A DNA stretch of 64,000 nucleotides from an uncultured Spirochaetaceae bacterium (GCA_964638895.1 CAZWYY010000013.1:2522-66521); one strand, 5' to 3'. Counted from the stretch's first letter, positions 43-27,722 are shown. Notes: generated from the sequence alone by a model not told the origin. Program-made: numbers and translations.

Positions 43-1323
43 ATGCGGTCATGGAAAAGCATAAAAAGACTCATTCACACGGGAAAACATTTTTGCATAA
101 TTCCGTGGATTCACCTTCATATCACGGGTTTGGGGTATATGGGGTTATGCTGCGGAGAAAAAAAAGGGCCGTACGCCAGGGGTTACGGCAGTGTAAATAA
201 AAATACCTTCCGGGCCCTGTGGCAGGGGGAGGCAATCAGGGAACTGCGCTTGAAAATGTTGAATGATGAAGCGGACCCGCGCTGCCGGCTCTGTTACGAG
301 CAGGAAAACCTGGGGCAGACAAGTCTGCGTTTTTTACATAACCGTTCGTATGCTGAAAAATTTTTGGACTGGTTGTTGAATACGGATGAGTGGGGCTTCG
401 CCCCGGATGCCAAACCGGTGTATTGGGATATACGCTTTTCCAATTTATGTAATTTACGGTGCAGGTCATGCAGTTATACGGCAAGCTCCGCCTGGTTCGA
501 GGACGCCAAAGCCCTGGGACCGGTAAGAACACGGAAAACAGGCGCCGCTGTTATCCGCGTGCAGCATACGGCCAGGCTTTTAAAGGAGCTGGAACCATAT
601 TATTCCTCCCTGGAAAAGGTGATATTTGCCGGAGGTGAACCTCTGCTCATGGATGAAAATTACGATATCCTGGACAACCTGGAAAGGCTGCAAAAGTATG
701 AGACCGAGCTGCATTTCATTACGAATTTAACGACCCTGAATTACAAAGGCCGTGATATCTTAAAGATCTGGAATAAATTCAAAAACCTGTTTGTAACGGT
801 CAGCCTGGACGGCAGCGGGGACCGCTGCGAATACCTGCGTAAGGGTTTGAAGTGGAAAGCGGTATTAAAAAACCTGGAGTCCCTAAAGGAAAACTGCCCC
901 AATGCGCGGTTGAGTATTAATTGCACGGTCAGCGTTTTCAATATTCTGCATATAACGGATTTCCACCGGGAACTGGTGGAAAAAAATTTCATCTCCCCGG
1001 AAATGCTGCAACTATGCTTTCTTTATGAACCCTCATATTACAGCGTAAAAATCCTGCCGTCTGAGATGAAAAAACATGCCATTAAAAAAATAATCACCCA
1101 TATACACTGGTTAAAAACACGGGAGCCTTTTCATAATTTACAGGGATTTAATATGCACGCGGAGCGTTTTTTCCAGTGGGAAAACTGCATCAAATATATC
1201 AGGGAGGGCGACCGGACACATTTGATTCCCAAATTCATAGCCTTCACCGAAAAACTGGATGCGTTGCGGAATGAAAACTGCCTGGAAATTTTCCCGGAGC
1301 TTAAACCCCTGTACACCCTATGA
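43..1323 (+). CDS. Radical SAM enzyme, family A, with an N-terminal Cys-rich SPASM-like region (FCxxPW...GxxxxCC) before the CxxxCxxC core
   Basis: CNLRCRSC cluster with GGEPL downstream; N-terminal FCIIPWIHLHITGLGYMGLCC and CRLC; about 55 percent identical to ORF 3717-5003. Confidence 0.7.
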   Translation: MRSWKSIKRLIHTGKHFCIIPWIHLHITGLGYMGLCCGEKKGPYARGYGSVNKNTFRALWQGEAIRELRLKMLNDEADPRCRLCYEQENLGQTSLRFLHNRSYAEKFLDWLLNTDEWGFAPDAKPVYWDIRFSNLCNLRCRSCSYTASSAWFEDAKALGPVRTRKTGAAVIRVQHTARLLKELEPYYSSLEKVIFAGGEPLLMDENYDILDNLERLQKYETELHFITNLTTLNYKGRDILKIWNKFKNLFVTVSLDGSGDRCEYLRKGLKWKAVLKNLESLKENCPNARLSINCTVSVFNILHITDFHRELVEKNFISPEMLQLCFLYEPSYYSVKILPSEMKKHAIKKIITHIHWLKTREPFHNLQGFNMHAERFFQWENCIKYIREGDRTHLIPKFIAFTEKLDALRNENCLEIFPELKPLYTL

Positions 1324-2330
1324 TGTCTGATATGATTTTTCTGGATCACAGAGCTGAAGAACACAAAAAGAATTTTTTACTCGACTGGTACCTGGAAAAT
1401 CCTTATAACCTGAAAATGAAGGCCGGGAGCTCCTCCGGTTCCCCGACCGAACCCGATGTGGGCAGATATCTGGATGTAAGGGTTATCAGTGAATTTTGTG
1501 ATCGGGTTCTGTGTCATTACGCGGATAAACTCCGGCGTAAAGTGATTTTTGAGTTCAGCGGCGGCGAGCTGACCCCCGTACGTTATCTTCTGCAGATTCT
1601 GGGTTATCTGAAAAACCGTGCATGCAAGAGGTCTCTTGTGGTTAATCATGCCAGAAAGCAGCCATACTGGAAAAAACTCATTGATGAGGTGGATTTCGTT
1701 ACCCTTACCTACCCGTCGGGATATAATCAACCGGAAGCGTACATCGCGCTGATGGAGTACCTTCAGAATCATACGATACTGAGGGCGGCGATAGTAATGC
1801 AGAAAGAACGCTTTGCGGAGTGCCGGGACCTGGCGCAGACCATTATGCGTTCTTTTCAGAATGTTATGCTCAGCATTTTACCACCTGAAGAGGAAAAATA
1901 CCTGACGTACTCCGGGGAAAAGCGTGAACGGCTTTCGGCCCTGCTTGATCTCTGCCGCGCTCACAATGAAAAAAACGGGCTGACAAACAAGTGGTATCGT
2001 GGGGAAATGACCGCTTACACTACCGACGGCGGGACGGGTCATCTGACCCCTGAACAAATTTTGGCCCATCGGCAAAACAACTGGAAATCATGGATGTGCT
2101 GGTCCGGTCTGCATAAAATGGTCGTAGCGCCAGACGGAGACGTTTACCGGGCATGGTGCTTTAATGAACGGTTGGGCAATGTAGGCGGTGACGTCACTTT
2201 TCCGACGGTACCTATCAGCTGTCCGCTGAAACGCTGCGCCGATATAAGGGACATCGCCTTAAAAAGACAAAGCCTTGTGTTATTTAATCCGGGGAATATC
2301 CGGGAACTCGCCGAAATCGGAATTTTCTGA
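1320..2330 (+). CDS. Pseudo-radical-SAM protein (family B paralog lacking the CxxxCxxC triad)
   Basis: Colinear with 2333-3358 (KVIFEFSGGELT vs KILFEFTGGEVT; C-terminal WMCWSGL...RAWCFNERLGN vs WLCWTGL...RAWCMQEQLGN) but no Cys triad; ATGA overlap with upstream gene. Confidence 0.55.
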   Translation: MMSDMIFLDHRAEEHKKNFLLDWYLENPYNLKMKAGSSSGSPTEPDVGRYLDVRVISEFCDRVLCHYADKLRRKVIFEFSGGELTPVRYLLQILGYLKNRACKRSLVVNHARKQPYWKKLIDEVDFVTLTYPSGYNQPEAYIALMEYLQNHTILRAAIVMQKERFAECRDLAQTIMRSFQNVMLSILPPEEEKYLTYSGEKRERLSALLDLCRAHNEKNGLTNKWYRGEMTAYTTDGGTGHLTPEQILAHRQNNWKSWMCWSGLHKMVVAPDGDVYRAWCFNERLGNVGGDVTFPTVPISCPLKRCADIRDIALKRQSLVLFNPGNIRELAEIGIF

Positions 2331-2332
2331 AC

Positions 2333-3358
2333 ATGGAAATGCGAAAACCTTTATATAAAGATAAGACCGTTTTTATTGATCATGAACTGGACAAACATAA
2401 GGATGTGTTTGTGGTCAACTGGAACCTGGGCAACCGTTGTAATTATCGCTGCAGCTATTGCAATGAGACGCTGAACAGCGGGTCGGTCCCCTGGCTGGAC
2501 GCGGAGGCCGTGTTATGCTTCGCCGACAAGGTTATAGCGCATTACTCGGGGAAATTGCATAAAAAAATCCTGTTCGAGTTTACGGGCGGTGAGGTTACCC
2601 TCTATAAGGATTTATACAAGGTATTGAAATATTTAAAAGAAAACGGGTGTAAAACGGAAATCTTATCGAACGCCAGTCCCCGGCTGGCGTTCTGGGAGAA
2701 AATAAAAGACGTGCTGGATTACGCGATTCTCAGTTACCACGCGGAACACTGCGCCCCCGAGCATTTTTATGAGGTAGTGAAATCCGTAAACCGCAATATC
2801 AATGTGCACGTCAACATCATGATGAACAGGAATCGTTTTAACCTCTGCCGGGACCTCGGGGTATCGATTATGGACCTGGGCTCCGGTATTTCCTTAAGGT
2901 TCCAGCCCTTGTTGGAAAAATTGGCCGTAAACGCAAAACTGATCGGATACACCGAAGAGCAGCTGGCGTCCATAGGAATACTGAATGATCGGTGCAGCAC
3001 GGATTTTACCGGCCAAAACAGGTACCGCGGGCGCATGATCCATTACACCAGCGGGGGCGGTGAGTTCATCATGGATCCCCTGCAGTATGTAACGGAAAAG
3101 AAGAATCACTGGAGAGGCTGGTTATGCTGGACCGGATTGGAACAGATCGTTGTTTCACAATGGGGCGAGGTTTTTCGTGCCTGGTGTATGCAGGAACAGC
3201 TAGGGAATATCAGCGGACATATTGAGTTTCCGACAAAGCCGGTGGTCTGTACGAAAAAGACCTGCCATTGCAATATCGACATGCTGTGCAAAAAGCAGCT
3301 GCCGGTTTACCTGGATCCGGCAAACCTGAACCGGCTTAAAAAAATCGGCCTTGTGTAA
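2333..3358 (+). CDS. Radical SAM enzyme, family B, with a C-terminal Cys-containing twitch/SPASM-like region
   Basis: CNYRCSYC, FEFTGGEV, C-terminal CTKKTCHC; paralog of 21303-22325. Confidence 0.7.
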   Translation: MEMRKPLYKDKTVFIDHELDKHKDVFVVNWNLGNRCNYRCSYCNETLNSGSVPWLDAEAVLCFADKVIAHYSGKLHKKILFEFTGGEVTLYKDLYKVLKYLKENGCKTEILSNASPRLAFWEKIKDVLDYAILSYHAEHCAPEHFYEVVKSVNRNINVHVNIMMNRNRFNLCRDLGVSIMDLGSGISLRFQPLLEKLAVNAKLIGYTEEQLASIGILNDRCSTDFTGQNRYRGRMIHYTSGGGEFIMDPLQYVTEKKNHWRGWLCWTGLEQIVVSQWGEVFRAWCMQEQLGNISGHIEFPTKPVVCTKKTCHCNIDMLCKKQLPVYLDPANLNRLKKIGLV

Positions 3359-3422: not shown

Positions 3423-3695
3423 ATGAGTAATAACGGAGACGTAAAGGCAAAGATAAAAGAGCTTTTGGCCGAAGTGACGGGTGACACCGCATTGTCGGGA
3501 AATCTAACGGACTCCTCCGATCTTATCAATGAGATCGGTCTGGACTCGATCCAGATGATCAATTTTATCCTTATGGTCGAGGATGAATTCGGGATCGAGA
3601 TTGATTTTGAGAACTTCGATTACACCAATTTCGAACGCTTTGACTCTTTCTGTCAATTTGTCTCGGAAACCGTGAAGTACCAGACGGTTTCATAA
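3423..3695 (+). CDS. Stand-alone acyl/peptidyl carrier protein (ACP-like)
   Basis: 90 aa, acidic, GLDSIQ phosphopantetheine-attachment-type motif; RBS AAAGGAGAGAA upstream. Confidence 0.65.
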   Translation: MSNNGDVKAKIKELLAEVTGDTALSGNLTDSSDLINEIGLDSIQMINFILMVEDEFGIEIDFENFDYTNFERFDSFCQFVSETVKYQTVS

Positions 3696-3716: not shown

Positions 3717-5003
3717 TTGATGAGAACAAAACGCGACATTCAGCGGCTGTTAAAAAAGGGCAAACATTTTTGTCTGGCGCCGTGGGTGCACCTACATGTG
3801 ACGGGCTTGGGGATCATGGGGTTATGCGCCATGTCGGAGCAGGGTCCCTTTGATACGGGGTACGGCAGCCTGAATACCAATTCATTCCCCGAATTATGGC
3901 AGGGTGAGGCTATCAGGGAGTTCCGTTTGAAGATGCTGGAGGATCAGCCGGATTCCCGCTGCGTCAACTGTTATAAAAGTCGGCTGGGATATACCACGTT
4001 GCGGAATGAGATCAATTCCTATTATTGGGGACATCTTGACTGGGTGGCGCATACGGACGCCTCGGGATACGCCCCGCGGGCGAAACCCATATTCTGGGAT
4101 ATTCGTTTTTCCAACATATGCAATTTAAAGTGCCGTTCCTGTATTGATGTATCCAGCACCGGATGGTATGAGGATGCCAAGGCCATGGGATTTTTAAATG
4201 CACGCCATAACGGGGAACCCATCCAAGGCGTAAAAGACCCTGCCCGGTTGTTGCAGGATCTTGAGCCGTACCTGCCCCACCTGGAAGGCATACGTTTCGC
4301 GGGGGGGGAGCCTTTATTAATGGAAGAGAATTATTATCTCATGCAGAAACTTGACGCCCAGCGCAAATACAACATTCGCATTGAATACGAAACGAATATG
4401 ACGAAGCTGTATTACAAAAAAGACCTTTTATTATCTCTATGGAAAAAATTCAAAAATATCCTGGTATCCGTCAGCCTGGACGGATTAGAGGAGAGGTGCG
4501 AATACCTGCGTAAGGGGCTGAAATGGGAGAAGGTACTGGGGTATATAAATGACATTAAAGCACACTGCCCGGGGATCGGCCTGCGGATTAATTACACGGT
4601 GAGCGCCTATAATATCCTGCACGCCGCGGAGTTTCACCGCACCATGGTGGAAAAAAAGTATATCGGGCCTGAACAGATTCAACTCATCTTCCTTGTTGAA
4701 CCCAATTACCTGAGTATGAAAATACTCCCCCCGGCAATGAAAAAAGCCGCAACCAACAAGCTGATGAATCACATACGCTGGCTGCACAGGGAGTATCCAT
4801 TCCGTTCCACCTGCGGATTCAGGAACTGCGGCGGGCTTTTCATTCAATGGCTTACCTGTATTAAAAAACTGAATGAAGAGGATTGGTCGCACCTGATACC
4901 GCAATTTATCGATTACACCAACAAACTGGATACGCTGCGCAGGGAAAACTGCCTCTCAGTTTTCCCTGAAGTAAACGGGCTTTTCCGGTTGCGGGTCGGA
5001 TGA
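3717..5003 (+). CDS. Radical SAM enzyme, family A (paralog of 43-1323)
   Basis: CNLKCRSC, GGEPL, N-terminal FCLAPWVHLHVTGLGIMGLC; likely ATG at 3720. Confidence 0.7.
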   Translation: MMRTKRDIQRLLKKGKHFCLAPWVHLHVTGLGIMGLCAMSEQGPFDTGYGSLNTNSFPELWQGEAIREFRLKMLEDQPDSRCVNCYKSRLGYTTLRNEINSYYWGHLDWVAHTDASGYAPRAKPIFWDIRFSNICNLKCRSCIDVSSTGWYEDAKAMGFLNARHNGEPIQGVKDPARLLQDLEPYLPHLEGIRFAGGEPLLMEENYYLMQKLDAQRKYNIRIEYETNMTKLYYKKDLLLSLWKKFKNILVSVSLDGLEERCEYLRKGLKWEKVLGYINDIKAHCPGIGLRINYTVSAYNILHAAEFHRTMVEKKYIGPEQIQLIFLVEPNYLSMKILPPAMKKAATNKLMNHIRWLHREYPFRSTCGFRNCGGLFIQWLTCIKKLNEEDWSHLIPQFIDYTNKLDTLRRENCLSVFPEVNGLFRLRVG

Positions 5004-5006
5004 ATC

Positions 5007-6734
5007 ATGGAGCTTGTTAAAAGGAAATTAAAGCAAGGCATCACTTTTTTTATGCCCGTCACGGCCGCCCCCCTGATAAATGAGATCTGGGAAAAGGAGG
5101 TGTACAACCGGGCATACTCGCTGAAGGAAAACGATATTGTGCTTGATGTGGGCGCGAATATCGGTGTTTTTTCACTCTACGCCGCTTCCAGGGGGGCGAA
5201 GGTCTTCAGTTTTGAACCCAACCCCGAAGTCTTTGCTGTTTTACAAGAGAACATCAGGATCAATAACCTGGAAAACAGGGTCACACCTTTGAATATGGCC
5301 CTGGGCGATCATAAAGGTAAAGCGACCTTATTCATGGCGCTTTCGGAAAAGATATACGCGCCGGGTTCGGCTTCCATTATGAGGGATTTTATTGATGATC
5401 TGGATAAAAGGTACGGCAAGAATGATTATACCGCCTTCACGGTTTCCTGCCTGCGGTTGGATCAGGCATTGGATTTACTGCGCCTTAAGATGGTTGATTT
5501 TATGAAGGTGGACTGCGAGGGAGCGGAGTACGACATCATGCAAAGCGTTCCGCAGCACAGGCTGGGAGAAATCCGCCGTATCGCCATGGAGATCCATATC
5601 GCCTGTTACTCCCAAAAAGAGTTGTGCCGGATTTTGCGGCAAAAGGGATACGTAGTCAACGAGTTCGAAAAAGCGGATGAATCCTCCCTGACCGGTTTTT
5701 TGTACTGTACCCATTCCGCAATGGGGATAACCGCACCCGGCAAACCGGTCGCGGTTTTGTCGGTCAGGCAGGGGCAAGACATAGATAAAGATTATGTTTT
5801 TTGTAATCAAAGCGTTATTTTTGACGGCAGCCGGAGTTTTATCACAAACGGCGGAGAGCGGAAACCCGTTTTTAAATGGAGCATAGATGAAATTAATGCC
5901 CGCAGCCAAGCTGAAAAATGGAGTTACAGGTTTACGGAACCGGGTTATCACCGGGTGACGCTCTGCCTGCGCCATGACCGTAAATCGGATTCGGCCGAAA
6001 AAGAACTCATGGTTTTACAGGCTGATTATTTTCGGGGCGGCGTTGATCATTACCTTTCACCGCTTAGGGAAGATACGGGAAGGAGTGATGCGAAATGTGT
6101 GACCTTTCATGACGGAGTCAAATTCTCAATCCGGAGTGATCACCTGCCGGCAACCAGGTTCGGACAGCTCTTGATCGAACTTGAAATTAAAAGTTTCCCC
6201 GGTGAACCGCTCTCCGGATTACAGGAGCAGCTGCTCTTATTTGAAATGAACGGCCGGAAGATCGTCCTCGGTGAGCCGAACGAAAAAATACTTATGGATA
6301 CAATTCTTTACGGCATCGACGCCGTTTTTACCCTCACTCCTTATATTTACCGGGGTCAAAGGGAGATCAGCATCAAATGGGGAATACCGGACACGATTTC
6401 CAACATACAAGAGGGAAACAAACCGGACACGGCTCCGCCGGCCGGGGAGACCGGTTTGTATCTTTTCCGGGGCGAGAAGCTTTTTACCATCGGCGTGGAT
6501 ATGTTTCCCCCGGACTGGACCCCGCGGGAAATTGTTATCGATATCAAGCCTTCACAGTACCGGGGCAAAAAAACCGCTTTGTCCGGCTTTCTGTGTTACG
6601 GAAAGCGGGTTACGGCATTATCCGGCTGGAAAGATGGGGCGCGCATAAAAAAGGGCGAGTGGGAGGATGATTTCTCATTCTCGATCAACCTGCCCACGGA
6701 GAATTGTCTCAGGCTGACATGGTGGCCCGAATGA
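5007..6734 (+). CDS. FkbM-family SAM-dependent methyltransferase fused to a ~330-aa C-terminal domain of unknown function
   Basis: LDVGANIGVFSLYAA, FEPNPEVF; C-terminal domain ends TWWPE as in paralog 23308-25038. Confidence 0.65.
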   Translation: MELVKRKLKQGITFFMPVTAAPLINEIWEKEVYNRAYSLKENDIVLDVGANIGVFSLYAASRGAKVFSFEPNPEVFAVLQENIRINNLENRVTPLNMALGDHKGKATLFMALSEKIYAPGSASIMRDFIDDLDKRYGKNDYTAFTVSCLRLDQALDLLRLKMVDFMKVDCEGAEYDIMQSVPQHRLGEIRRIAMEIHIACYSQKELCRILRQKGYVVNEFEKADESSLTGFLYCTHSAMGITAPGKPVAVLSVRQGQDIDKDYVFCNQSVIFDGSRSFITNGGERKPVFKWSIDEINARSQAEKWSYRFTEPGYHRVTLCLRHDRKSDSAEKELMVLQADYFRGGVDHYLSPLREDTGRSDAKCVTFHDGVKFSIRSDHLPATRFGQLLIELEIKSFPGEPLSGLQEQLLLFEMNGRKIVLGEPNEKILMDTILYGIDAVFTLTPYIYRGQREISIKWGIPDTISNIQEGNKPDTAPPAGETGLYLFRGEKLFTIGVDMFPPDWTPREIVIDIKPSQYRGKKTALSGFLCYGKRVTALSGWKDGARIKKGEWEDDFSFSINLPTENCLRLTWWPE

Positions 6735-8087: not shown

Positions 8088-8098
8088 AGGAGACATAA

Positions 8099-9243: not shown

Positions 9244-9269
9244 CCGCCGTCTTTGTAAGGAGGATTATT

Positions 9270-20249: not shown

Positions 20250-21315
20250 TAATTATTTAGACGCGGAGCAAACCGAGGAAGAAATTAAGCGCGGGTTCGA
20301 GGAAAATATCTCCGCTTACCTGGACTGCCGCTATGCCGTCCCGGTTGTCAATGGCACGGTTGCGCTTGAGGTTGCCCTGCGCGGGCTGGGCCTCTCACGG
20401 GGAGACTGCGTTATTGTGCCTGATATCTCCTTCATCGCCACGGCCACGGCCGTGGCCAATTGCGGCCTGGTGCCGGTGTATGCGGATGTAAGTCCCACAT
20501 ACTTCGGACTTACCCTGGAAACACTGCAAAACAGGAATTGTTCCGGGGTAAAAGCCGTGGTGCTGGTACATTTTTCCGGGTTTGTCAACAGGGAGCTGTT
20601 TGAGATAATCGAATACTGTTACAGTAACGGCCTGGCCCTGGTGGAAGACTGCGCCCAGGCGTTTGCCTGTACGGCCCACGGTAGAAAGGTGGGCACCTTC
20701 GGCGACGCGGGCGCGTTCAGTTTTCAATCCTCCAAAAGTATAAGCGCCGGTGAAGGGGGGCTTGTCTGCACCGACAAGCGGCACCTGGCCGCGCAGTTCC
20801 AGGCCGTTTCCGACTGGGGGATGAGCCCCTTGTTTAAGCGCCGAAAACTTGCGCTTGCCAGCAGCAACTTCCGGCTCAGCGCCCTGCAGTGTTATGTTTT
20901 GGGCCGGAAACTCGAACATATCGACAGCACGGTAGCGGCAAGACGCGAACGCTGCGCCCGGTTGGAAGACGCCTGCCGCGAACTGGGCCTGGAACACTGT
21001 CTGCCTGCCCCCAGACCGGAATATTTTGACTGCCCCTTCTTTTTTCCGCTGAAAAGCGCGCGCAAACTTAACAGCATAGAGCCCCGGGAAGAGTCTCCCC
21101 TGCATAGATCCGCCATAGTAGTCGCCATTCTGGAACGCTTTTACCCGGATCTGCTGAAGCGGTATTATGAACTCAATCCTCCCGGGGTCATGTCGGAATT
21201 CGCCGGCAACAAGGTTATTACTGATATTGATTTTATCAACATCAGCCAAACATGGAATCTGCCCGCGGATCAGGTAGTGTCTGCGTACAAGGAGGCGGTG
21301 TTATGTCGGAAATAA
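20233..21315 (+). CDS. DegT/DnrJ/EryC1/StrS-family PLP-dependent (sugar) aminotransferase
   Basis: VNGTVALEVAL, GDCVIVPDISFIATA, FSFQSSKSISAGEGG (PLP Lys). Confidence 0.75.
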   Translation: MKSAINNYLDAEQTEEEIKRGFEENISAYLDCRYAVPVVNGTVALEVALRGLGLSRGDCVIVPDISFIATATAVANCGLVPVYADVSPTYFGLTLETLQNRNCSGVKAVVLVHFSGFVNRELFEIIEYCYSNGLALVEDCAQAFACTAHGRKVGTFGDAGAFSFQSSKSISAGEGGLVCTDKRHLAAQFQAVSDWGMSPLFKRRKLALASSNFRLSALQCYVLGRKLEHIDSTVAARRERCARLEDACRELGLEHCLPAPRPEYFDCPFFFPLKSARKLNSIEPREESPLHRSAIVVAILERFYPDLLKRYYELNPPGVMSEFAGNKVITDIDFINISQTWNLPADQVVSAYKEAVLCRK

Positions 21316-22325
21316 TGGCCCTGCGGCACCAGTTTGAAAAAACCGAAAATATTCTGCTTGTAGACTGGTGTGTCAGCAATATCTGTAATTTCGCCTGCTC
21401 GTATTGCCCGGAACATACCCACGCGGGTACGCATCCGTTTATGCCAATTAAAAATATCCTACTGTTTTCGGACCGGATTGTGGATCACTACGTAAAGAAA
21501 CTGCATAAAGAGGTCTATTTTCTTTACACGGGTGGCGAGGTGACCTTGTATAAGGATTTTATTCCCCTGATCCGCACTCAAAAAGAGAACGGCCACCGTG
21601 TGAGTATCAGTACCAATGGATCGCGCAGGTTGTCCTTCTGGCAGGAGGTTAAAAAATACCTGTTCCAGGTAAGCATGAGCTACCACGATGAGTATACGGA
21701 CCTGGATCATTTCATCAATGTAATAAACCTGATAAAGTCGGACACCTATACCCATGTTAATATCATGGTCCAGCCCGACCGCTTCCAGCAGTGTCTGGAC
21801 GCGGCCTACCGGGTGCTGCATGAAACCGATGATATCACCATCGATCTCCAGATTGTGTTGAGGGATTTCATCGAGCCTTACCCATATACAAATCAGCAGC
21901 GCAGGCTCATCATCGCGGTGGGTAAGGAAATCAACGGCAAACTGAAACTAAAACGCAAGCGGGACAGTTACCGCGGGCTGATGAAACTTGTGTTTCGTGA
22001 CGGCTCACACGAGTTGGTAAAACCCGGTGATCTTCTAACAAGAAATTTGCACGCCTGGCGGGGCTGGAGCTGTTACATTGGTCTTGAGATCCTGGTGGTT
22101 GATCTGAACGGTGATATCTACAGGAGCTGGTGCGGCGACGCCGGTAAAATCGGGAATATTAATGATGAACAGATACACTTTCCCACAAAACCGCATATCT
22201 GCGGCAGGGCCTATTGCAGCGGGGGGATCACCGACACCATGGTCACAAAAATCAAGGAGGCATGTAATGAGCAGCCGGACGACAGCCGGAGTGTTCTCGC
22301 CGTTTACAATCAGGGACGGGTTTGA
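21303..22325 (+). CDS. Radical SAM enzyme, family B (paralog of 2333-3358)
   Basis: CNFACSYC, YTGGEVTLYKDF, C-terminal WRGWSCYIGL...CGRAYC; AAGGAGG RBS before ATG 21303. Confidence 0.7.
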   Translation: MSEIMALRHQFEKTENILLVDWCVSNICNFACSYCPEHTHAGTHPFMPIKNILLFSDRIVDHYVKKLHKEVYFLYTGGEVTLYKDFIPLIRTQKENGHRVSISTNGSRRLSFWQEVKKYLFQVSMSYHDEYTDLDHFINVINLIKSDTYTHVNIMVQPDRFQQCLDAAYRVLHETDDITIDLQIVLRDFIEPYPYTNQQRRLIIAVGKEINGKLKLKRKRDSYRGLMKLVFRDGSHELVKPGDLLTRNLHAWRGWSCYIGLEILVVDLNGDIYRSWCGDAGKIGNINDEQIHFPTKPHICGRAYCSGGITDTMVTKIKEACNEQPDDSRSVLAVYNQGRV

Positions 22326-23292
22326 GCTGTCCAACCGGATAGTGTTCGCCCCCGTATACATAAACAGGGCAAACGAGTCCGCTGAGTTCAGGAATTTCTA
22401 CGCCGGGCGGGCCAAGGGCGGCGCCGGGCTGATAATCACGCCGGTTCAGACAATGGGGGGCTTTACCGATCTTTATACCCCGGCCTTCCGCAAGGCGGCA
22501 CGCATGCTTCTGGATGAATGCAGGGCGCACGGAGCCCGGGTTATCCCGCAGGTATTTTCCGGTGTGGGAGCCTGGGTAAACCGGATGAGTACGCGGGAGC
22601 TTTCCCGCCTGCCTGAGGCCTTCGCGCTCTGCGCACTTAAACTGCGTGAGGCCGGATACCCCGGCATGGAGATTCACGGTGCGCATCACAGCCTGTTCAT
22701 GCACCTGCTGTGCCCCGGTATTAATCAGCGTACCGACCGTTATAACGGCGGTTTGGAGGCAAGAGCCGCCCTTCAGGTTGAAACCGTAAAAGCCGTTAAA
22801 GCCGGGGCGGGACGGAATTTCAGCCTTTTTTACCGCTTGAGCGCCACGGACTTCACTGCGGGAGGTTTTGATATTATCCATGCCGTGGATGTTGCCCGGA
22901 TGCTTGAGCGGGCCGGCGCGGACTGTCTTGATATTTCGGCGGGAGGGACCTCAATCAGCCCCACGGGTTCCGAATGCCCGGACCATACACAGCCGGAGTC
23001 TTGTTTCCGTTCATATTTCAGTAAAGTGAAACGGGCCGTAAAGATTCCCGTAATCGGCGCGGGCAGAATCAACTCACGCGCGGCCGCCGAAAAAATTCTG
23101 GTACAGGGAAGGGCCGACCTGATCGCCCTAGGCAGGACGCTGGTGGCTGATCCCTTCTGGCCGCTTAAAGTCAGACAGGGGAGGGAGACGGAGATTCTGC
23201 CCATGAACGAATGGTATAAATATATGCCCGGGTACCGCTCGGCGGAGCAACATGCCGCGACAGGCGATGGCGCCCTTGGAACTAAAGTATAA
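22267..23292 (+). CDS. Old Yellow Enzyme family NADH:flavin oxidoreductase
   Basis: MEIHGAHHSLFMHLL, RTDRYNGGLEARA, GGFDIIHAVDVARMLERAGADCLDISAGG; start uncertain (ORF track 22111, first ATG 22267). Confidence 0.75.
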   Translation: MSSRTTAGVFSPFTIRDGFELSNRIVFAPVYINRANESAEFRNFYAGRAKGGAGLIITPVQTMGGFTDLYTPAFRKAARMLLDECRAHGARVIPQVFSGVGAWVNRMSTRELSRLPEAFALCALKLREAGYPGMEIHGAHHSLFMHLLCPGINQRTDRYNGGLEARAALQVETVKAVKAGAGRNFSLFYRLSATDFTAGGFDIIHAVDVARMLERAGADCLDISAGGTSISPTGSECPDHTQPESCFRSYFSKVKRAVKIPVIGAGRINSRAAAEKILVQGRADLIALGRTLVADPFWPLKVRQGRETEILPMNEWYKYMPGYRSAEQHAATGDGALGTKV

Positions 23293-23307: not shown

Positions 23308-25038
23308 ATGAGGACCGTGACAAATAAACTGGACAATGGCTATGAGGTGGAGATGGACCCCGGTGCTGAGTTCATTGTGCATGAGATCTGGGACGATTTG
23401 TTTTATGACCGTGATTACCACATCGGACGCGGTGATATAGTCCTGGATATCGGGGCGAATATAGGCATATTTTCGCTTTTCGCCGCATACCGCGGGGCCC
23501 GGGTCTATGCCGTGGAACCGGATGAACATAACTACAATCTATTGTGCTCGAATATTGAAAGGAACGGACTCGGCCGCCGGATTCATCCCATTTTCTGCGC
23601 TGCCGCCAAAAATGACGGTACTATAGCGCTTTACATCCCCCCTGCGGAAAAATTATGCGCGTCCGGCATGATAACAACCTCGCTTGCCCAGATAGAGAAG
23701 CTTACAGGGCATGACACTTCCGGGGTCAGTGTAACCAGGGTGAAATCCGTCTCACTCCCCGGCCTGCTGAGGCAAATAGCGGAAGCGCACATCTCCCTAT
23801 TAAAACTGGATACCGAAGGCGCGGAACTGGATATTCTTCTCGGAACGGACGCGGACGATCTGCGATCCGTGGAGTGCATAGTCATGGAGACACACTCATC
23901 CTATACCGAGCGGGAGCTTTATCACCGGGTGCGCAGGCTGGGATTCGACGTTATCAGTTATGAAAAGCGCACCGGACCTTTCTTAACCGGCTATCTTTAC
24001 GCAAAGAAGGCCCGGGCGGGAAGGCCTGCCGGTCGTACCAGGCCCGTCGCCATCCTCACTGTTCCCGGGAGTGTGGATTCCCCGAACAGTGCCATCGCAG
24101 ACGCCGGACAGAGTTTTTCAACCGTAAACCCGGATTGCTGCGGTCTCGGTTACCGTTTCAGCGTGGATGGGAAGGAGGAACCATTTTCCACCGATCCTGT
24201 CCGGCATATACATTTTAAGAAACCGGGACTTCACCGCATTTCAGTTGATATTCTGGAAGGCGGTATTGACAACTGCAGGCAGAAAAACATGCCGGCCGGT
24301 TTCGGCAGCGACCGGGCCGAGAAAACAGTATGGGTTTTCACCGAGCACTACGGACCGTCCCCGCGCGCCCTGGCCCTGCCCGAACTGGGGAAAAAAAAGG
24401 AGTTTACCGTTTCCGCCCAAACAGAGTTTTTCATACCGGCAGAGAACATTCCCAAGCAATGGGATTATGACGCCCTGGGTATCGGTGTAGGTCTATTGGA
24501 CACGCCCGAAAACCCGGAAGAACCGCACATCAGCCTGCTACATAACGGGGTGCGGACCAAAATCACCTCAAGTTACCAGGAGGTCATTATTCCCGCTTTT
24601 CCCAGGGGGCGCGATCTTTGTTTTTCTTTCGAAAGCGCGTGCAATTTCCGGGTATGCCTGCATTGGTTTGCCAGAGTCGGGGCGGAGGCTCCCGTGCTTC
24701 CGGTGCTTGATTGCCGTAACAGCCGAGGACAGCTTCTTGGAGAAAAATCATCGGCGCATATCTGCCTGTTCGAAGGTGAGGGCCGTTTGGTGGTCGCGCG
24801 GGAGTTATTGCCGAAAACATGGAATCCGGTCTGTGTAAAGATCTGTTTTTCGGTGCACGAGCGGGATACCACAGGAAAGGAACTGGAGGGCGAACTGGTG
24901 TTCAAGGGGCGTTGTTTCACATTACTGGGTTGGTATAAGGAAATTAACTTCAGCGGGGAGGAGATCCGTAACAAAATGGAGTATATGGTGCGGGTGCCGT
25001 GCGCCCGTGTCTATCAGGTTACCTGGTGGCCCGAATAA
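23308..25038 (+). CDS. FkbM-family methyltransferase with C-terminal unknown domain (paralog of 5007-6734)
   Basis: LDIGANIGIFSLFAA, VEPDEHNY; C-terminus YQVTWWPE. Confidence 0.65.
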   Translation: MRTVTNKLDNGYEVEMDPGAEFIVHEIWDDLFYDRDYHIGRGDIVLDIGANIGIFSLFAAYRGARVYAVEPDEHNYNLLCSNIERNGLGRRIHPIFCAAAKNDGTIALYIPPAEKLCASGMITTSLAQIEKLTGHDTSGVSVTRVKSVSLPGLLRQIAEAHISLLKLDTEGAELDILLGTDADDLRSVECIVMETHSSYTERELYHRVRRLGFDVISYEKRTGPFLTGYLYAKKARAGRPAGRTRPVAILTVPGSVDSPNSAIADAGQSFSTVNPDCCGLGYRFSVDGKEEPFSTDPVRHIHFKKPGLHRISVDILEGGIDNCRQKNMPAGFGSDRAEKTVWVFTEHYGPSPRALALPELGKKKEFTVSAQTEFFIPAENIPKQWDYDALGIGVGLLDTPENPEEPHISLLHNGVRTKITSSYQEVIIPAFPRGRDLCFSFESACNFRVCLHWFARVGAEAPVLPVLDCRNSRGQLLGEKSSAHICLFEGEGRLVVARELLPKTWNPVCVKICFSVHERDTTGKELEGELVFKGRCFTLLGWYKEINFSGEEIRNKMEYMVRVPCARVYQVTWWPE

Positions 25039-25062: not shown

Positions 25063-26457
25063 ATGAGAATCGTACTGATAATCTTGCCCTGCTGGTCGGT
25101 CAATACGCCGCCCCTGGGCATATCTTACATTGCCGCTGCCTTAAGAAAGGCGGGGTATGACGTCACCGTATTTGATTTAAACACAAGGTTATGGAATGAG
25201 TTTAAAGCGGATGAGGACGACCTCTGGGAATCACGCAATCACACAAAATGGGAGTTCCATGATGATTTTATCGGATACGTGTTGCCGCATATTAAACACA
25301 GGCTTGATTATCATATAAAAAGAATAATCGACGGCGATTTTGACATTGTCGGATTTTCCGTTTTTATCACCTCCCTTAATACGACAAAATATTTTATAGA
25401 AGAAATAAAAAAAGAGAAACCGGAAACAAAAATTATTTTCGGCGGTCCGGGGGTGGATATCTATGAAATAAAAAACAGTCTGAAAAAAGGATTTGTCGAC
25501 GCCGCGATCGTCGGAGAAGGTGAGGAGGCAATCGTCGGTTTGCTTTCAAGATGGAAAACAGGCGATGATATATTGGGGATACCGGGCATTATTGCCAAAA
25601 GTAAAACCGGGAGGTTTGTTTTTTCGCAGGGTGCGCTTATTGAAATCCTTGATAATCTGCCCCCACCCGATTTTAGTGATTATAGGGACCTGACCTATTC
25701 CGACAAAAGGCTTCCGATAATGATGAGCCGCGGATGCATCGGTTCCTGCAGTTTCTGCTCCGAAGTTAAATATTGGAAGAAATTCCGCAGGCGGTCGGCT
25801 TTTCATATCTATGAGGAGATCGAAACGGACGTAAAAAAGTATGGGATATCAAAATTTATTTTTGCCGATTCGCTGATCAACGGAGATCATAAAATACTGG
25901 AAGAACTGGTGGATTTAATACTGGAAAACGGGTTGGAGATTACCTGGTTGGGAAACGCGAGAATTGACGGAAGATTAACCAAAAATTTACTGCAAAAAAT
26001 GGCTGCCGCCGGATGCGCCTGTTTGATGTATGGATTGGAGAGCGGCTCACCGAAGATCTTGAAATTGATGAAAAAGGGAATCAGACTCGAAGAAGCCCGG
26101 CGGGTTATCAGGGATACCTGTAATGCGGGAATTGAGGTGCAGATAAACATGATCGTCGGGTTCCCGGGTGAAACGGAGGAGGATTTTTGCAGCAGCCTTG
26201 ATTTTCTGTTTAAAAATCAGGTCTTCATTAATGTAGTGAATACCGGTGTTCCCTTAGGAATCGGCCCCAACATGGAACTATACGAACATCCCGAGAAATA
26301 CGGGATAATGACCAATAAATACGGGAAAGTATTTTATGATGAGAATGATTCATGGATGACTATCGACAAAAAAAATACGTATCCTGTGCGCTATAAGCGG
26401 TTATTACGCATGCGAGAATTTTTAGCGTATAATCATATAGACTATAATCCAAGGTAA
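25063..26457 (+). CDS. B12-binding-domain radical SAM enzyme
   Basis: MRIVLIILP...GISYIAAALRKAGYDV B12-like N-terminus; MMSRGCIGSCSFCSE. Confidence 0.7.
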   Translation: MRIVLIILPCWSVNTPPLGISYIAAALRKAGYDVTVFDLNTRLWNEFKADEDDLWESRNHTKWEFHDDFIGYVLPHIKHRLDYHIKRIIDGDFDIVGFSVFITSLNTTKYFIEEIKKEKPETKIIFGGPGVDIYEIKNSLKKGFVDAAIVGEGEEAIVGLLSRWKTGDDILGIPGIIAKSKTGRFVFSQGALIEILDNLPPPDFSDYRDLTYSDKRLPIMMSRGCIGSCSFCSEVKYWKKFRRRSAFHIYEEIETDVKKYGISKFIFADSLINGDHKILEELVDLILENGLEITWLGNARIDGRLTKNLLQKMAAAGCACLMYGLESGSPKILKLMKKGIRLEEARRVIRDTCNAGIEVQINMIVGFPGETEEDFCSSLDFLFKNQVFINVVNTGVPLGIGPNMELYEHPEKYGIMTNKYGKVFYDENDSWMTIDKKNTYPVRYKRLLRMREFLAYNHIDYNPR

Positions 26458-26477
26458 AAAACCGGCGGATCCTCGCA

Positions 26478-27722
26478 ATGATCCGCACAATGAACAAAAA
26501 AAGGCTTTCAATTCAGAAGAGAAGTATTCACATGGTAAAAGAACAGCCCGTATTCGTGATTCGTAATAAAATCCATACGTTTATCAGGCGGTTGGATTTT
26601 AAGGTGTATGTTCAGTATAAGGTATGCGGACGGGAAAAACAAAAACTCATGGCTGTGGGAACCGTTAACGGCGGGGACCTTGAGACTCTGCGGATAAACC
26701 TTTGTGCCTTTGGTTTCAAACTTACTATTATAGACACACCGCATTACCGGGGTCTTTACGGTCAGGCCCCTTCAGGGATATACGGGCTGTTTTTATCACC
26801 CAAGCGGGAAATCATCTCATTGAACCAGGATATCCTGAATCAAACCCTGCTTGAACAGCCCATATTCGAGCTGAATCGATTCGGTAAGGAGCACGGGATT
26901 GAGGACCTGGTGTTTCTGGAATATGAAGCCTGCCTTTCACTCTGGGCATGCCTGGATCGGGTATTTGCCGAACTGCTTGGAATCTCCTATCCTGAATTGC
27001 TTTTTACAAAATATAAAAACAGCCATAACCAATATATCAGAAACTACCTGAAACTTAAACGGAATGCGGAAATCTTTCATTATGATCCGGAATATGCCGG
27101 TAACAACATTGCCTTGTTTAGTTGGATATATTGCCTGGAAGTAAAAATAACCGAGGAACTGGTAAGAGGTGAAACGGTTTCCCTTCATGACACGGGCACA
27201 AGCCTGGCCCATTTTCCCCTGCTTTTAAGCGGATTATCCTGCGCTCAACTCTTTGGCTTGAAGATTGGCGCGATTTCAGCCTCGGACAAAGTCTGGACCG
27301 GGCAGGGGTATATAGAGAGAATACTCCGGGAGAATCCGCATTACAGAAAAATCGATTTCGTACGGGCCGATTTGACCAAAGACATGGAGCTGTTACCTGA
27401 ATCCGATGTAATCATTTTAAATGATGTTTTGGAGCACCTGCCGGATGACCGCACCGCATTCGCGGTCTTACACGGGCTTTGGAACAAGGCCGGCAGACTA
27501 CTGATTGCCCACGTGCCGTTGGAATCCGAACCGAACGCGGCCTGGGATCACCATATTTCGTTTACCCCCGAGAAGATCCGTGATTGGTCGCGTTCATTGC
27601 CGGGGGGGTGTGTGCGTTCCGACACCTATTCCGCCGGCGACATAAGCCTGACCGCTTTGGGTTTTTTCATCATAACAAAAAACAACTTATCATCATCAGC
27701 AGGACAGCGGCACCGGCACTGA
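26478..27722 (+). CDS. Class I SAM-dependent methyltransferase with an N-terminal unknown domain
   Basis: VIILNDVLEHLPDD motif in C-terminal half; last gene of the co-directional block. Confidence 0.45.
   Translation: MIRTMNKKRLSIQKRSIHMVKEQPVFVIRNKIHTFIRRLDFKVYVQYKVCGREKQKLMAVGTVNGGDLETLRINLCAFGFKLTIIDTPHYRGLYGQAPSGIYGLFLSPKREIISLNQDILNQTLLEQPIFELNRFGKEHGIEDLVFLEYEACLSLWACLDRVFAELLGISYPELLFTKYKNSHNQYIRNYLKLKRNAEIFHYDPEYAGNNIALFSWIYCLEVKITEELVRGETVSLHDTGTSLAHFPLLLSGLSCAQLFGLKIGAISASDKVWTGQGYIERILRENPHYRKIDFVRADLTKDMELLPESDVIILNDVLEHLPDDRTAFAVLHGLWNKAGRLLIAHVPLESEPNAAWDHHISFTPEKIRDWSRSLPGGCVRSDTYSAGDISLTALGFFIITKNNLSSSAGQRHRH

Follow-up and report, generated by a model that had tools for sequence, protein, structure and literature searches.

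The DNA stretch analysed here, referred to as the window, comprised 64,000 nucleotides of an uncultured, anaerobic Spirochaetaceae bacterium (GCA_964638895.1 CAZWYY010000013.1:2522-66521) and carried 24 open reading frames (ORFs) on the + strand between positions 43 and 27722. About 99% of this span was coding and the widest intergenic gap was 64 nt. This is in line with the single, dense, co-directional biosynthetic operon described in the initial annotation, although its estimate of about 25 genes becomes 24 and its tight junctions include gaps of up to 64 nt; the ATGA overlaps at 1320 and 11525 were both real, each of 4 nt. The upstream end of the cluster is missing, as the window and the source contig both stop inside it. 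Upstream of position 43, where a short precursor ORF or further genes had been envisaged, a further gene was found (P0012, a third N_Twi_rSAM paralogue directly upstream of the window start), so that the cluster continues there, whereas the genes downstream of W24 were unrelated to it. The cluster had a GC of 0.49 and a GC3 of 0.60, versus 0.55 and 0.71 in the remainder of the window, a difference that argues for a foreign origin, the cluster probably having been acquired horizontally. The genes are the following:

W01, 43..1323, + strand: radical SAM enzyme with N-terminal twitch/SPASM domain (N_Twi_rSAM; NF033640, Pfam SPASM, and Radical_SAM)
W02, 1320..2330, + strand: pseudo-radical SAM protein, paralogue of W03 (aligned with W03, without the SAM-cluster cysteines)
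W03, 2333..3358, + strand: radical SAM enzyme, weakly STM4011-like, probable catalytic partner of W02 (Radical_SAM)
W04, 3423..3695, + strand: free acyl/peptidyl carrier protein (PP-binding, 6.9e-11)
W05, 3717..5003, + strand: second N_Twi_rSAM enzyme (NF033640, 335 bits, cut-off 170; CNLKCRSC at residue 135)
W06, 5007..6734, + strand: FkbM methyltransferase with C-terminal domain of ~340 aa (Methyltransf_21, 4e-18)
W07, 6753..8087, + strand: ATP-grasp ligase of the PGM1/BesA/BtrJ type (AF2 model, Foldseek)
W08, 8098..9243, + strand: GT-B glycosyltransferase, GT1/GT28-like (AF2 model, Foldseek)
W09, 9186..10442, + strand: radical SAM enzyme with C-terminal SPASM/twitch domain (Radical_SAM and SPASM)
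W10, 10452..11528, + strand: GT2 glycosyltransferase with C-terminal extension (Glycos_transf_2, 1.2e-25)
W11, 11525..12328, + strand: ABC-2 permease (ABC2_membrane_6, 1.4e-18)
W12, 12378..13124, + strand: ABC-2 permease (ABC2_membrane_6, 7.9e-32)
W13, 13128..14111, + strand: ABC transporter ATPase, final gene of the conserved core (ABC_tran, 8.3e-24)
W14, 14112..15290, + strand: second GT2 glycosyltransferase, first gene of the extension (Glycos_transf_2, 3.4e-22)
W15, 15280..16260, + strand: radical SAM enzyme (Radical_SAM, 5.2e-17; CNMKCRAC at residue 12)
W16, 16248..17681, + strand: class-B-like radical SAM enzyme (Radical_SAM, 9e-18)
W17, 17662..18831, + strand: divergent radical SAM enzyme with N-terminal SPASM-like domain (SPASM, residues 24-88)
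W18, 18858..20249, + strand: 463-aa protein, family unassigned (ORF)
W19, 20233..21315, + strand: DegT-type PLP sugar aminotransferase (DegT_DnrJ_EryC1, 5.7e-60)
W20, 21252..22325, + strand: third radical SAM enzyme of the W02/W03 family (Radical_SAM, 4.8e-11)
W21, 22111..23292, + strand: OYE-type flavin oxidoreductase (Oxidored_FMN, 2.9e-44)
W22, 23308..25038, + strand: second long FkbM methyltransferase (Methyltransf_21, 8.6e-18)
W23, 25063..26457, + strand: B12-binding radical SAM enzyme, class B, candidate C-methyltransferase (B12-binding, 1.6e-19; Radical_SAM, 5.6e-20)
W24, 26478..27722, + strand: divergent methyltransferase-like protein, last gene of the cluster (weak Methyltransf_11 and MftM matches)

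Nine proteins (W01, W03, W05, W09, W15, W16, W17, W20, and W23) combined an intact CX3CX2C motif with a Pfam Radical_SAM match, the number given in the initial annotation; the match of W17, with CNLACPSC at residue 150, scored 29.3 bits (cut-off 29.5). SPASM/twitch domains, of which at least one had been expected, occurred in four proteins and were N-terminal in three of these (W01, W05, and W17). W01 matched NF033640 with 366 bits (cut-off 170), its SPASM domain spanning residues 18-85 and its Radical_SAM domain residues 131-294, with CX3CX2C at residue 136. The one Cys-less pseudo-radical SAM protein noted earlier is W02, a paralogue of W03 (31-39% identity) without CX3CX2C and without any family match in profile searches. 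According to the alignment, the motif is also lost in its orthologues in two related clusters, L002 and L003. Despite this loss, W02 kept C260, C280, C301, and C306, which are invariant in the W02/W03-family alignment; W20 (CNFACSYC at residue 45) possesses the same four C-terminal cysteines. The family of W03 (CNYRCSYC at residue 36; orthologues at 60% and 48% identity) comprised 171 representatives (E <= 1e-30), including proteins of 640-660 aa with two matched stretches, which suggests that these proteins of ~650 aa are fused pairs. In three clusters, moreover, the catalytic paralogue is directly preceded by the Cys-less one. Judged from these alignments, W02 and W03 probably form a heterodimer of a non-catalytic and a catalytic subunit. 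As to the two B12-binding radical SAM enzymes claimed, a Pfam B12-binding domain was found in W23, but none was detected in W16 despite its class-B architecture. Indeed, the best NCBIfam matches of W16 were B12-radical SAM families, all far under their cut-offs, and W16 aligned with W23 from residue 93; its orthologue in L034 (46% identity) adjoins a DegT gene.

Four genes, encoding the carrier protein (W04), the ATP-grasp ligase (W07), the GT-B glycosyltransferase (W08), and a radical SAM enzyme with one auxiliary cluster (W09), form a cassette. The GLDS serine of W04 (Ser42) was at least 95% conserved over 79 aligned sequences, in agreement with the free ACP/PCP-like protein reported before. 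Neither W07 nor W08 had a Pfam match, but AlphaFold models and Foldseek searches bore out both earlier assignments. For W07 (pLDDT 93), the best structural neighbours were PGM1-family peptide ligases and BesA (8ynd, 8yi6 (BesA), and 3wvq (PGM1)), and its EINAR Mg-ATP motif was invariant in the family alignment. W07 was 26% identical end to end (E 2e-30) to a BtrJ-like protein of Paenibacillus sophorae, an ATP-grasp enzyme located with BtrK-, BtrI-, and BtrH-like genes and whose own function is deduced from this synteny. W07 is proposed to load the carrier protein. W08, annotated as GT28-like, adopted a GT-B fold (pLDDT 89; best matches elaiophylin GT, CalG3, MurG, OleD, and MGD1) with invariant nucleotide-sugar motifs HGGGWG and SKPGG-T-DS; its longest ORF begins at 8014 and the deposited product is 381 aa. 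A natural ACP::GT-B fusion (P0351) was represented by a single sequence on a 2.4-kb contig. The true start of W09 probably lies ~28 codons further in than called, because its orthologues are 390 aa long. Among 75 aligned sequences, Cys 81, 85, 88, 158, 349, and 367 were invariant and Cys 407 and 410 were 99% conserved, and the conserved set C-X17-C-X39-C-X2-C would be enough for one auxiliary cluster.

The remaining genes encode tailoring and export functions that largely correspond to those listed in the initial annotation. The two FkbM methyltransferases, W06 and W22, are paralogues over their full length; the C-terminal ~340 aa of W06, which has an orthologue in L002 (40% identity), had no known relative and no PDB match. 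The class I methyltransferase could be retained as methyltransferase-like only (W24), given its weak matches; relatives of W24 (40-43% identity) form part of larger proteins in Spirochaetota clusters. Both GT2 glycosyltransferases were found, W10 having orthologues (50-63% identity) in L003, Spirochaetota loci, L034, L042, and L065. The exporter consists of two ABC2_membrane_6 permeases and one ATPase. Pfam matches substantiated the DegT aminotransferase (W19; orthologues in L034 and L058, 47-49% identity) and the OYE reductase (W21), the latter likely starting near 22267. W18 had no Pfam, NCBIfam, or PDB match.

The genes at 43-14111 were collinear with two fully bounded clusters from other uncultured genomes. 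Orthologues of W01-W13 occurred in near-identical order in L002/L092 (38-66% identity), and those of W02-W05 and W07-W14 in L003 (32-65% identity), with W01 orthologues in L002 and L003 being 52-53% identical. Both clusters open after a MalT/BTAD-type regulator; L002/L092 ends after the counterpart of the ABC ATPase W13 and L003 one gene beyond. At a wider scale, the ACP was found in 83, the ATP-grasp gene in all, the GT-B gene in 85, and the radical SAM/SPASM gene in 81 of 86 cassette loci, 47 of which contained an ABC-2 exporter. No characterised pathway with this gene order was found; the related clusters were all orphan, with no known product.

The carrier protein and PGM1/BtrJ-type ATP-grasp enzyme are shared with the AHBA side-chain module of butirosin biosynthesis in Bacillus circulans (BtrI, BtrJ, BtrK, BtrH, and BtrG). 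Similarly, both have a sugar-rich setting, the window containing a GT-B enzyme, a DegT aminotransferase, and a radical SAM enzyme with one auxiliary cluster. BtrN is a radical SAM enzyme with a single twitch-like auxiliary cluster; a search of PDB sequences with W09 (390 aa) did not retrieve it. In Paenibacillus, the cassette adjoins true BtrH/I/J/K-like genes. In contrast to butirosin, the window lacks BtrH/BtrG transfer enzymes and 2-deoxy-scyllo-inosose synthase, a BtrK/CtaF-type decarboxylase was not found among the cluster genes, and the identity of W07 to the BtrJ-like protein is low. BtrJ and CtaD are thiotemplated ATP-grasp enzymes that attach acidic amino acids to carrier proteins (PMC7183216; PMC11350588). 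The closthioamide or noncanonical thiotemplated class of anaerobic Firmicutes (Dunbar et al. 2020, PMC7183216) also relies on an NRPS-independent ATP-grasp enzyme and stand-alone carrier proteins, and its ~400 uncharacterised clusters include large orphan groups with a glycosyltransferase or KASIII-like gene, matching the cassette neighbours. By contrast, the CtaG papain-like transacylase, CtaF decarboxylase, CtaC thioamide synthetase, and CtaI ligase of the closthioamide pathway are all missing from the window; W08 has no Pfam match, whereas the glycosyltransferase group of that study is defined by PF13528; and the density of radical SAM enzymes and the invariant pairing of GT-B and radical SAM genes are not in that study (PMC7183216). 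An off-loading enzyme was not recognised: neither the window nor the compact L003 cluster contained a gene for a thioesterase or BtrH, or one like CtaG or KASIII.

In profile searches of the window, KS/AT, adenylation, lanthipeptide, and cyclodehydratase enzymes were missing, as had been stated before, and so were condensation enzymes. The claim that the locus matches no canonical layout was nevertheless overstated, because a carrier protein with a BtrJ/PGM1-type ATP-grasp enzyme represents the butirosin/closthioamide logic, so that the core follows an already described noncanonical thiotemplated route (PMC7183216). As W07 folds like the PGM1/BesA ligases and is homologous to a BtrJ-like protein, NRPS-independent thiotemplated logic is most likely. 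We give about an even chance to the locus being a specialised-metabolite cluster that most likely yields an exported, glycosylated, and heavily tailored small molecule by NRPS-independent carrier-protein assembly. Of the three product options raised initially, the carrier-protein-bound small molecule is hence favoured, and the RiPP and lipid options are disfavoured.

It is possible, albeit rather unlikely, that the cluster modifies and exports a surface glycan or glycoconjugate by an ABC-transporter-dependent route instead of making a diffusible small molecule. The ACP/ATP-grasp pair would then supply an aminoacyl or acyl decoration, while the radical SAM enzymes, methyltransferases, and aminotransferase would tailor sugars. 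The two GT2 enzymes (best match EpsD-like), FkbM methyltransferases, DegT aminotransferase, and ABC-2 exporter are indeed reminiscent of O-antigen/teichoic-acid type loci, a close relative of W01 (48% identity) belongs to a locus with many GT4, GT2, GT61, GT1, and PMT_2 genes, and a GFO/IDH/MocA sugar-type dehydrogenase gene often follows the cassette. In Nostoc, the cassette is surrounded by polysaccharide-type genes (encoding GT2, PS_pyruv_trans, sulfotransferases, and APS kinase) and by carbamoyltransferase genes, a context that fits glycan decoration and a small molecule equally well. However, the window contains no initiating phosphoglycosyl transferase, Wzx/Wzy, other polymerase, or nucleotide-sugar (NDP-sugar) synthesis gene, and both permeases are ABC2_membrane_6 (PF06182), not Wzm-type (PF01061) or TagG. 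Moreover, the bounded relatives open with SARP-like MalT/BTAD regulators, which are typical of secondary metabolism, and the Paenibacillus versions, with BtrH-like transferases and a second ACP accompanied by an AMP-ligase, display small-molecule logic. There is also a small chance that the locus represents two adjacent clusters, a complete one at 43-14111 and a separate tailoring or second-product module at 14112-27722 that merely shares its orientation. The ends of L002/L092 and L003 agree with such a division, as does the finding that W15, W17, W18, W21, and W23 had no orthologue near the cassette in the 86 loci; the two bounded relatives lack the genes at 14112-27722, which might be devoted to a second product. 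Against this, the gap at the 14111/14112 junction is 0 nt and the next junctions overlap, the single GT2 of L003 has its closest orthologue in W14 (60% identity), genes like W16, W19, W14, and W24 recur beside the cassette (L034 and Spirochaetota loci), and GC is the same in both halves (0.49 and 0.49).

A radical SAM-modified RiPP with its precursor gene beyond the upstream edge of the window, as once suggested for the sequence before position 43, is now quite improbable. Its peptide would be modified by the SPASM/twitch and B12-radical SAM enzymes, glycosylated by the GT2 enzymes, and exported by the ABC transporter. The many SPASM/twitch enzymes, the B12-radical SAM enzyme, and the exporter recall sactipeptides, ranthipeptides, and mycofactocin (a GT2 weakly matching MftF and a methyltransferase MftM), the best NCBIfam match of W23 is the RiPP C-methyltransferase family TIGR03975, and the window and contig end within the cluster. 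Yet this match (158 bits, cut-off 282) and those to all RiPP-maturase models are far under cut-offs; profile searches found no PqqD/RRE, peptidase, or leader-processing domain in the window proteins; and no conserved precursor-sized ORF was present in the gaps of the regulator-bounded L003 and L002/L092 or of the Spirochaetota relative L010. It is this lack of a precursor ORF and RRE domain that makes a RiPP unlikely. Known RiPP logic leaves no role for the conserved ACP/ATP-grasp/GT-B module. Equally improbable is a tailored lipid or glycolipid, with a fatty acyl chain bound to the ACP, a lipid as acceptor of the GT28-like glycosyltransferase (compare UgtP and MGDG synthases), and alkyl chains methylated or cross-linked by the radical SAM enzymes. 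The sequence matches of W08 are exclusively diglucosyl-diacylglycerol synthases, W16 and W23 weakly match TIGR04072 ('lipid biosynthesis B12-binding/radical SAM'), W03 and W20 weakly match Tes, and some cassette relatives carry a FabH-like gene. Those scores are, however, 4 to 17 times under the family cut-offs, W08 is structurally as near to natural-product GT1 as to GT28 enzymes, and the constant partner of the carrier protein is an ATP-grasp and not a FAS/PKS enzyme; no KS, AT, KR/DH/ER, acyltransferase, or glycerol-lipid enzyme in the window backs this option.

For the favoured carrier-protein-bound small molecule, we infer the following chemical steps. W07 would activate a carboxylate, most likely of an amino acid, as acyl-phosphate and thioesterify it onto the phosphopantetheine arm of W04, in the manner of BtrJ and CtaD with their respective partners BtrI and CtaE. 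W08 would transfer a sugar from its nucleotide-activated form to the intermediate, either still tethered or just released, after which W09 may perform a radical oxidation or bond-forming step. The scaffold would be decorated by three N-terminal-twitch radical SAM enzymes, the W02/W03 pair and W20, W15-W17, and the B12-radical SAM enzyme W23, together with the FkbM and other methyltransferases, the DegT aminotransferase, the OYE reductase, and two GT2 enzymes, and the ABC-2 transporter W11-W13 would export the product. Judging by their co-location, the four cassette genes are proposed to act as one conserved module. This core recurs in about 200 bacterial species, relatives of its ATP-grasp enzyme being found in 199 GTDB species, including culturable Paenibacillus, Clostridium, and Nostoc.

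Positions 43-27722 carry a genuine and coherent biosynthetic cluster, which is an orphan. It comprises 24 ORFs on the plus strand (W01 to W24), which overlap or are separated by no more than 64 nt, with about 99% of the sequence coding. The initial annotation had described about 25 co-directional genes with tight junctions; the single strand, the tight junctions, and the 4-nt overlaps at 1320 and 11525 were all retrieved, and the ORF listing corrected the count to 24. The positions on which the further analysis is based are as follows.

43-27722, plus strand: biosynthetic cluster
43-14111, plus strand: conserved core of the cluster
14112-27722, plus strand: extension of the cluster
43-1323, plus strand: W01, rSAM with N-terminal twitch/SPASM domain
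1320-2330, plus strand: W02, pseudo-rSAM
2333-3358, plus strand: W03, rSAM paralogue of W02
3717-5003, plus strand: W05, rSAM with N-terminal twitch/SPASM domain
5007-6734, plus strand: W06, long FkbM protein
17662-18831, plus strand: W17, rSAM with N-terminal twitch/SPASM domain
23308-25038, plus strand: W22, long FkbM protein
27936-28589, plus strand: ORF of 217 aa without Pfam family
28599-29309, minus strand: ORF of 236 aa without Pfam family
29331-32987, minus strand: hybrid sensor of 1218 aa
40863-45161: DUF3160, Memo-like, and AMMECR1 genes

Searches of the cluster proteins with Pfam and NCBIfam models recovered nine radical SAM (rSAM) proteins, each with a CX3CX2C motif, one PP-binding carrier protein (W04), two FkbM methyltransferases of about 575 aa (W06 and W22), two GT2 glycosyltransferases (W10 and W14), a DegT aminotransferase (W19), an OYE reductase (W21), and exporter genes coding for two ABC2_membrane_6 permeases and one ATPase (W11-W13). 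The carrier, FkbM, GT2, ABC-2, DegT, and OYE families read initially from the sequence were thus all matched by HMM, as were the nine rSAMs with intact CxxxCxxC; the single Cys-less pseudo-rSAM corresponds to W02, a paralogue of the rSAM W03. Similarly, at least one SPASM protein had been expected, and SPASM/twitch domains occur in four proteins, lying N-terminally in W01, W05, and W17. Of two rSAMs annotated as B12-binding, W23 stands and the other does not, as a B12-binding domain is detectable in W23 only (W16 is class-B-like).

The cluster extends upstream of the window. Further genes or a short precursor ORF had been proposed before position 43; a further gene (P0012), coding for a third N_Twi_rSAM, was found there, and the 66.6-kb source contig, which exceeds the window by at most 2.6 kb, ends at this gene. 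The missing upstream end was not recovered: the only exact match for W01 was a 3-kb Logan contig, P0012 had no database record, and a metagenome scan with P0012 found nothing. Downstream of 27722, unrelated genes follow, coding for a hybrid sensor kinase with GGDEF, an Lhr helicase, DUF3160, Memo, AMMECR1, and a branched-chain amino acid ABC transporter. The cluster (1-27722; GC 0.49, GC3 0.60) is of lower GC and GC3 than the flanking housekeeping genes (27723-64000; GC 0.55, GC3 0.71), which is consistent with its horizontal acquisition. No Rfam families or tRNAs were found in the 64-kb window. The two ORFs without Pfam family separate the cluster from the sensor gene, which is convergent with the cluster end and encodes a periplasmic-binding domain, HisKA/HATPase, a receiver, and GGDEF. 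Further on, the gene for a 918-aa DUF3160 protein precedes the Memo-like gene, after which comes the convergent AMMECR1 gene, with no adjoining rSAM, unlike the usual AmmeMemoRadiSam partner arrangement.

Four genes of the cluster form a cassette, namely those for the carrier protein (ACP; W04), an ATP-grasp protein (W07), a GT-B glycosyltransferase (W08), and an rSAM/SPASM protein (W09). W04 (PP-binding, 6.9e-11, Pfam) contains a GLDS motif whose Ser42 is kept in at least 95% of 79 aligned sequences, and hence represents the stand-alone carrier protein with conserved phosphopantetheine-attachment serine that is typical of noncanonical thiotemplated (NCT) clusters. The AlphaFold model of W07 (pLDDT 93) best matched, by Foldseek, PGM1-family ATP-grasp peptide ligases (8ynd, 3wvq) and BesA, and its E-I-N-A-R Mg-ATP motif and Lys-rich loop are invariant across 26 homologues. 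A full-length homologue (E 2e-30) is the Paenibacillus sophorae ATP-grasp beside BtrK-, BtrI-, and BtrH-like genes. W07 thus provides the second NCT feature, a PGM1/BtrJ/CtaD-clade ATP-grasp beside an ACP, the reference for this assignment being the BtrJ-like protein of P. sophorae. W08, labelled 'UDP-glucuronosyltransferase' as a family in some databases, was modelled as a GT-B fold (pLDDT 89), with GT1 natural-product enzymes (elaiophylin GT, CalG3, OleD, VinC) and MurG/MGD1 as nearest Foldseek matches, and with HGGGWG and SKPGG-T-DS invariant across 29 homologues. A PDB sequence search with W07 and W08 gave marginal matches only. In W09 (75 aligned sequences), no variation was seen at the three SAM-cluster cysteines or at Cys158, Cys349, and Cys367, and conservation reaches 99% at Cys407 and Cys410; the C-X17-C-X39-C-X2-C set is enough for one auxiliary cluster. 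In addition, the carrier protein and the cassette GT-B are naturally fused in a database protein of 486 aa (P0351), encoded on a 2.4-kb Logan contig.

Searching one genome per GTDB species with the ATP-grasp alignment revealed relatives in 199 species, among which many of Paenibacillus, Clostridium, Nostoc, Spirochaetota, Margulisbacteria, Methylococcaceae, Chlorobiaceae, and Anaerolineales; a GTDB genome scan using W01 alone found no relatives. The search for similar neighbourhoods suggested by the initial annotation yielded homologous clusters, the cassette genes being co-located in nearly all of 86 loci (ACP 83/86, ATP-grasp 86/86, GT-B 85/86, rSAM/SPASM 81/86). The ABC-2 exporter accompanied them in 47 and GT2 in 11 of the 86 loci, and the N_Twi_rSAM and the pseudo-rSAM/rSAM pair in a handful only. 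Frequent neighbours were a GFO/IDH/MocA dehydrogenase directly 3' of the rSAM and a FabH-like KASIII 5' of the ACP; in Paenibacillus, the neighbours were BtrH-, BtrK-, and BtrJ-like genes or an AMP-ligase together with a second ACP. In three loci of the Paenibacillus polymyxa group (L063, L055, L071), the cassette is rearranged and a second ATP-grasp paralogue is present; in the main ATP-grasp, about 60 aa of low-complexity, Ser/Gly-rich sequence are inserted close to the C-terminus.

Two relatives are bounded on both sides. The cluster of a Bacillota MAG (L003/L004) starts with a MalT/BTAD regulator, a pseudo-rSAM, an rSAM, an Fe-S aldo-keto reductase, the ACP, the ATP-grasp, the GT-B, and a methyltransferase, followed by two rSAM-SPASM proteins, an N_Twi_rSAM, a GT2, two ABC-2 permeases, the ATPase, and a GFO/IDH/MocA dehydrogenase, before convergent hydrogenase genes. 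The cluster on a JGI contig (L002/L092) starts with a MalT/BTAD regulator, five rSAMs including two N_Twi_rSAMs, a pseudo-rSAM, its rSAM partner, and a long FkbM, and continues with the ACP, ATP-grasp, GT-B, rSAM-SPASM, GT2, two ABC-2 permeases, and the ATPase, where it ends. The proteins of both are 32-66% identical to those of the window, and all cluster proteins looked up are singletons at 90% identity. Based on the gene content of these relatives, 43-14111 is assigned as the conserved core and 14112-27722 as an extension. No gap occurs at the junction (14111/14112), GC is equal on either side, and extension members W14, W16, W19, and W24-like genes recur by the cassette in another relative (L034) and in Spirochaetota MAGs.

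The rSAM complement is unusual in its domain order. Indeed, the twitch/SPASM domain is N-terminal to the rSAM core in W01, W05, W17, and P0012, the usual order being the reverse. W01 (366 bits) and W05 (335 bits) belong to N_Twi_rSAM (NF033640; cut-off 170; SPASM 18-86, Radical_SAM about 130-294) and W17 (64 bits) does not. This family, without assigned function, had more than 4,700 matches among the candidates scored, and literature searches found no characterised member of the N-terminal twitch rSAMs. No uniform context emerges for it: it stands alone in Chromatiales, belongs to an ORFan-rich locus of marine origin, and occurs in glycosyltransferase-rich loci with ACP and KS; therefore, membership alone gives no function. 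Two marine metagenome contigs (L090, L091) encode a 552-aa N_Twi_rSAM fusion. Its gene forms a block with others of the same direction, coding for two further rSAMs, a PNP_UDP_1 nucleosidase, a SAM synthetase, and a carbamoyltransferase, and the majority of the adjacent ORFs belong to no Pfam family; these contigs may derive from a novel lineage or a large virus. Among solved structures, viperin was closest to W01, as a weak match, and a viperin-like or antiviral role was rejected (viperin_w_prok 39-53 bits, cut-off 180).

The W02/W03 family comprised 171 representatives at E ≤ 1e-30, including members of about 650 aa with two matched stretches, which look like fused pairs. The upstream paralogue lacks CX3CX2C in three clusters (window 1320-2330, L002:14901-15911, and L003:307-1344) and keeps four invariant C-terminal cysteines (C-X19-C-X20-C-X4-C) in common with the catalytic paralogues, so that it may still bind an auxiliary Fe-S cluster; in Spirochaetota, both copies retain CX3CX2C. 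The motif loss in three clusters, the retained cysteines, and the two-stretch members suggest a heterodimer in which one subunit is catalytic and the other is not. W06 and W22 are full-length paralogues (25% identity), both ending in WWPE, in which FkbM is followed by a C-terminal domain of about 340 aa without Pfam, NCBIfam, or PDB match. W18 and W24 retrieved nothing in a PDB sequence search.

Beyond the folds, motifs, synteny, and fusion observed, a pathway chemistry can be inferred from the homology of W07 to the P. sophorae Btr-type ATP-grasp and the published chemistry of BtrJ and CtaD. These ATP-grasp enzymes attach Glu or Asp to a carrier protein as a thioester, via an acyl-phosphate; NCT logic is widespread, butirosin and closthioamide being the only known products, and large orphan NCT groups carry a glycosyltransferase or KASIII-like gene (PMC7183216, PMC11350588). 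W07 would load W04, W08 would glycosylate the tethered or nascent intermediate, and W09 would carry out a radical step, after which the other rSAMs, the methyltransferases, DegT, OYE, and GT2 would tailor the product and W11-W13 would export it. The core follows a known, barely explored logic. It is conceivable, yet rather improbable, that the cassette constitutes a new module for thiotemplated glycoside assembly, in which the glycosyltransferase acts on a carrier-tethered aminoacyl thioester and the rSAM then forges or oxidises a bond on the tethered glycoside. About 200 species would then produce glyco-amino-acid metabolites of a previously unseen kind, the scaffold being rebuilt further in this window by N-terminal-twitch rSAMs and a catalytic/non-catalytic rSAM heterodimer. 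Weak points of the model are that no off-loading enzyme is recognisable in the cluster and that the ACP::GT-B fusion is a single observation. Further, no Orn/DAP decarboxylase, BtrH_N, or papain-like protein matched among the 24 proteins (Pfam/NCBIfam), leaving the cluster without a recognised BtrK/CtaF decarboxylase or BtrH/CtaG transacylase; the decarboxylase and the transacylase occur in about 65% and 45% of PCP-associated NCT clusters, respectively, and are thus frequent but not universal (PMC7183216).

The strongest rival to this thiotemplated pathway is the decoration of a surface glycan, which would fit the Nostoc cassette context as well as the GT2, FkbM, DegT, and ABC-2 genes. The SARP/MalT-like regulators and the BtrH-like genes in Paenibacillus argue against it. 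Moreover, ABC-transporter-dependent polysaccharide loci possess Wzm/Wzt, an initiating phosphoglycosyl transferase, and NDP-sugar genes, whereas the permeases here are PF06182 and the window contains neither an initiating transferase nor NDP-sugar genes; the former could be encoded elsewhere in the genome. An rSAM RiPP cluster is unlikely. The initial annotation had seen no short precursor ORF, and indeed no gap within the window (at most 64 nt) fits a precursor gene, nor was a precursor ORF present in the relatives L003, L002, and L010, the latter from Spirochaetota; among the 24 proteins, PqqD/RRE had no match and every RiPP maturase model scored far below cut-off. For this window, whose upstream cluster end lies outside the available sequence, the RiPP reading keeps a small probability. 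A lipid or glycolipid product found only sub-threshold support, with TIGR04072 (ladderane/lipid B12-rSAM) at 78 and 103 bits (cut-off 360) and tetraether synthase Tes at about 26 bits (cut-off 450).

Known systems were likewise not recovered. As read initially for KS/AT and adenylation domains, no ketosynthase, acyltransferase, adenylation, or condensation domain of a Type II FAS/PKS or NRPS occurs in the 24 proteins (Pfam/NCBIfam). Butirosin-type 2-deoxystreptamine clusters encode a 2-deoxy-scyllo-inosose synthase, a BtrN-type dehydrogenase, and a paromamine-forming glycosyltransferase, whereas no DHQ-synthase-like protein is present here and W09 did not retrieve BtrN. Mycofactocin requires MftA, MftB, and MftC, whereas the cluster scores at most 50 bits for MftC (cut-off 265), 66 for MftF (280), and about 21 for MftM (200). 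Literature searches on the gene combination and on NCT follow-ups gave neither a description nor a characterised member of the cassette or its rSAM elaboration, and the gene order, whose presence in a characterised pathway would have spoken against novelty, was not found in one.

Standard genome-mining rules miss NRPS-independent thiotemplated pathways. The present analysis defines a compact four-gene module that is almost always co-located and is tied, in uncultured anaerobes, to a far larger rSAM-rich elaboration. In addition, two rSAM families without assigned function, N_Twi_rSAM and the W03 family with its conserved Cys-less partner, gain a biosynthetic context. Since the module occurs in some 200 species, readily cultured Paenibacillus and Clostridium among them, it offers a direct experimental handle. 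If a glycosyltransferase indeed acts on a carrier-bound substrate, this would represent an unusual enzymatic logic.
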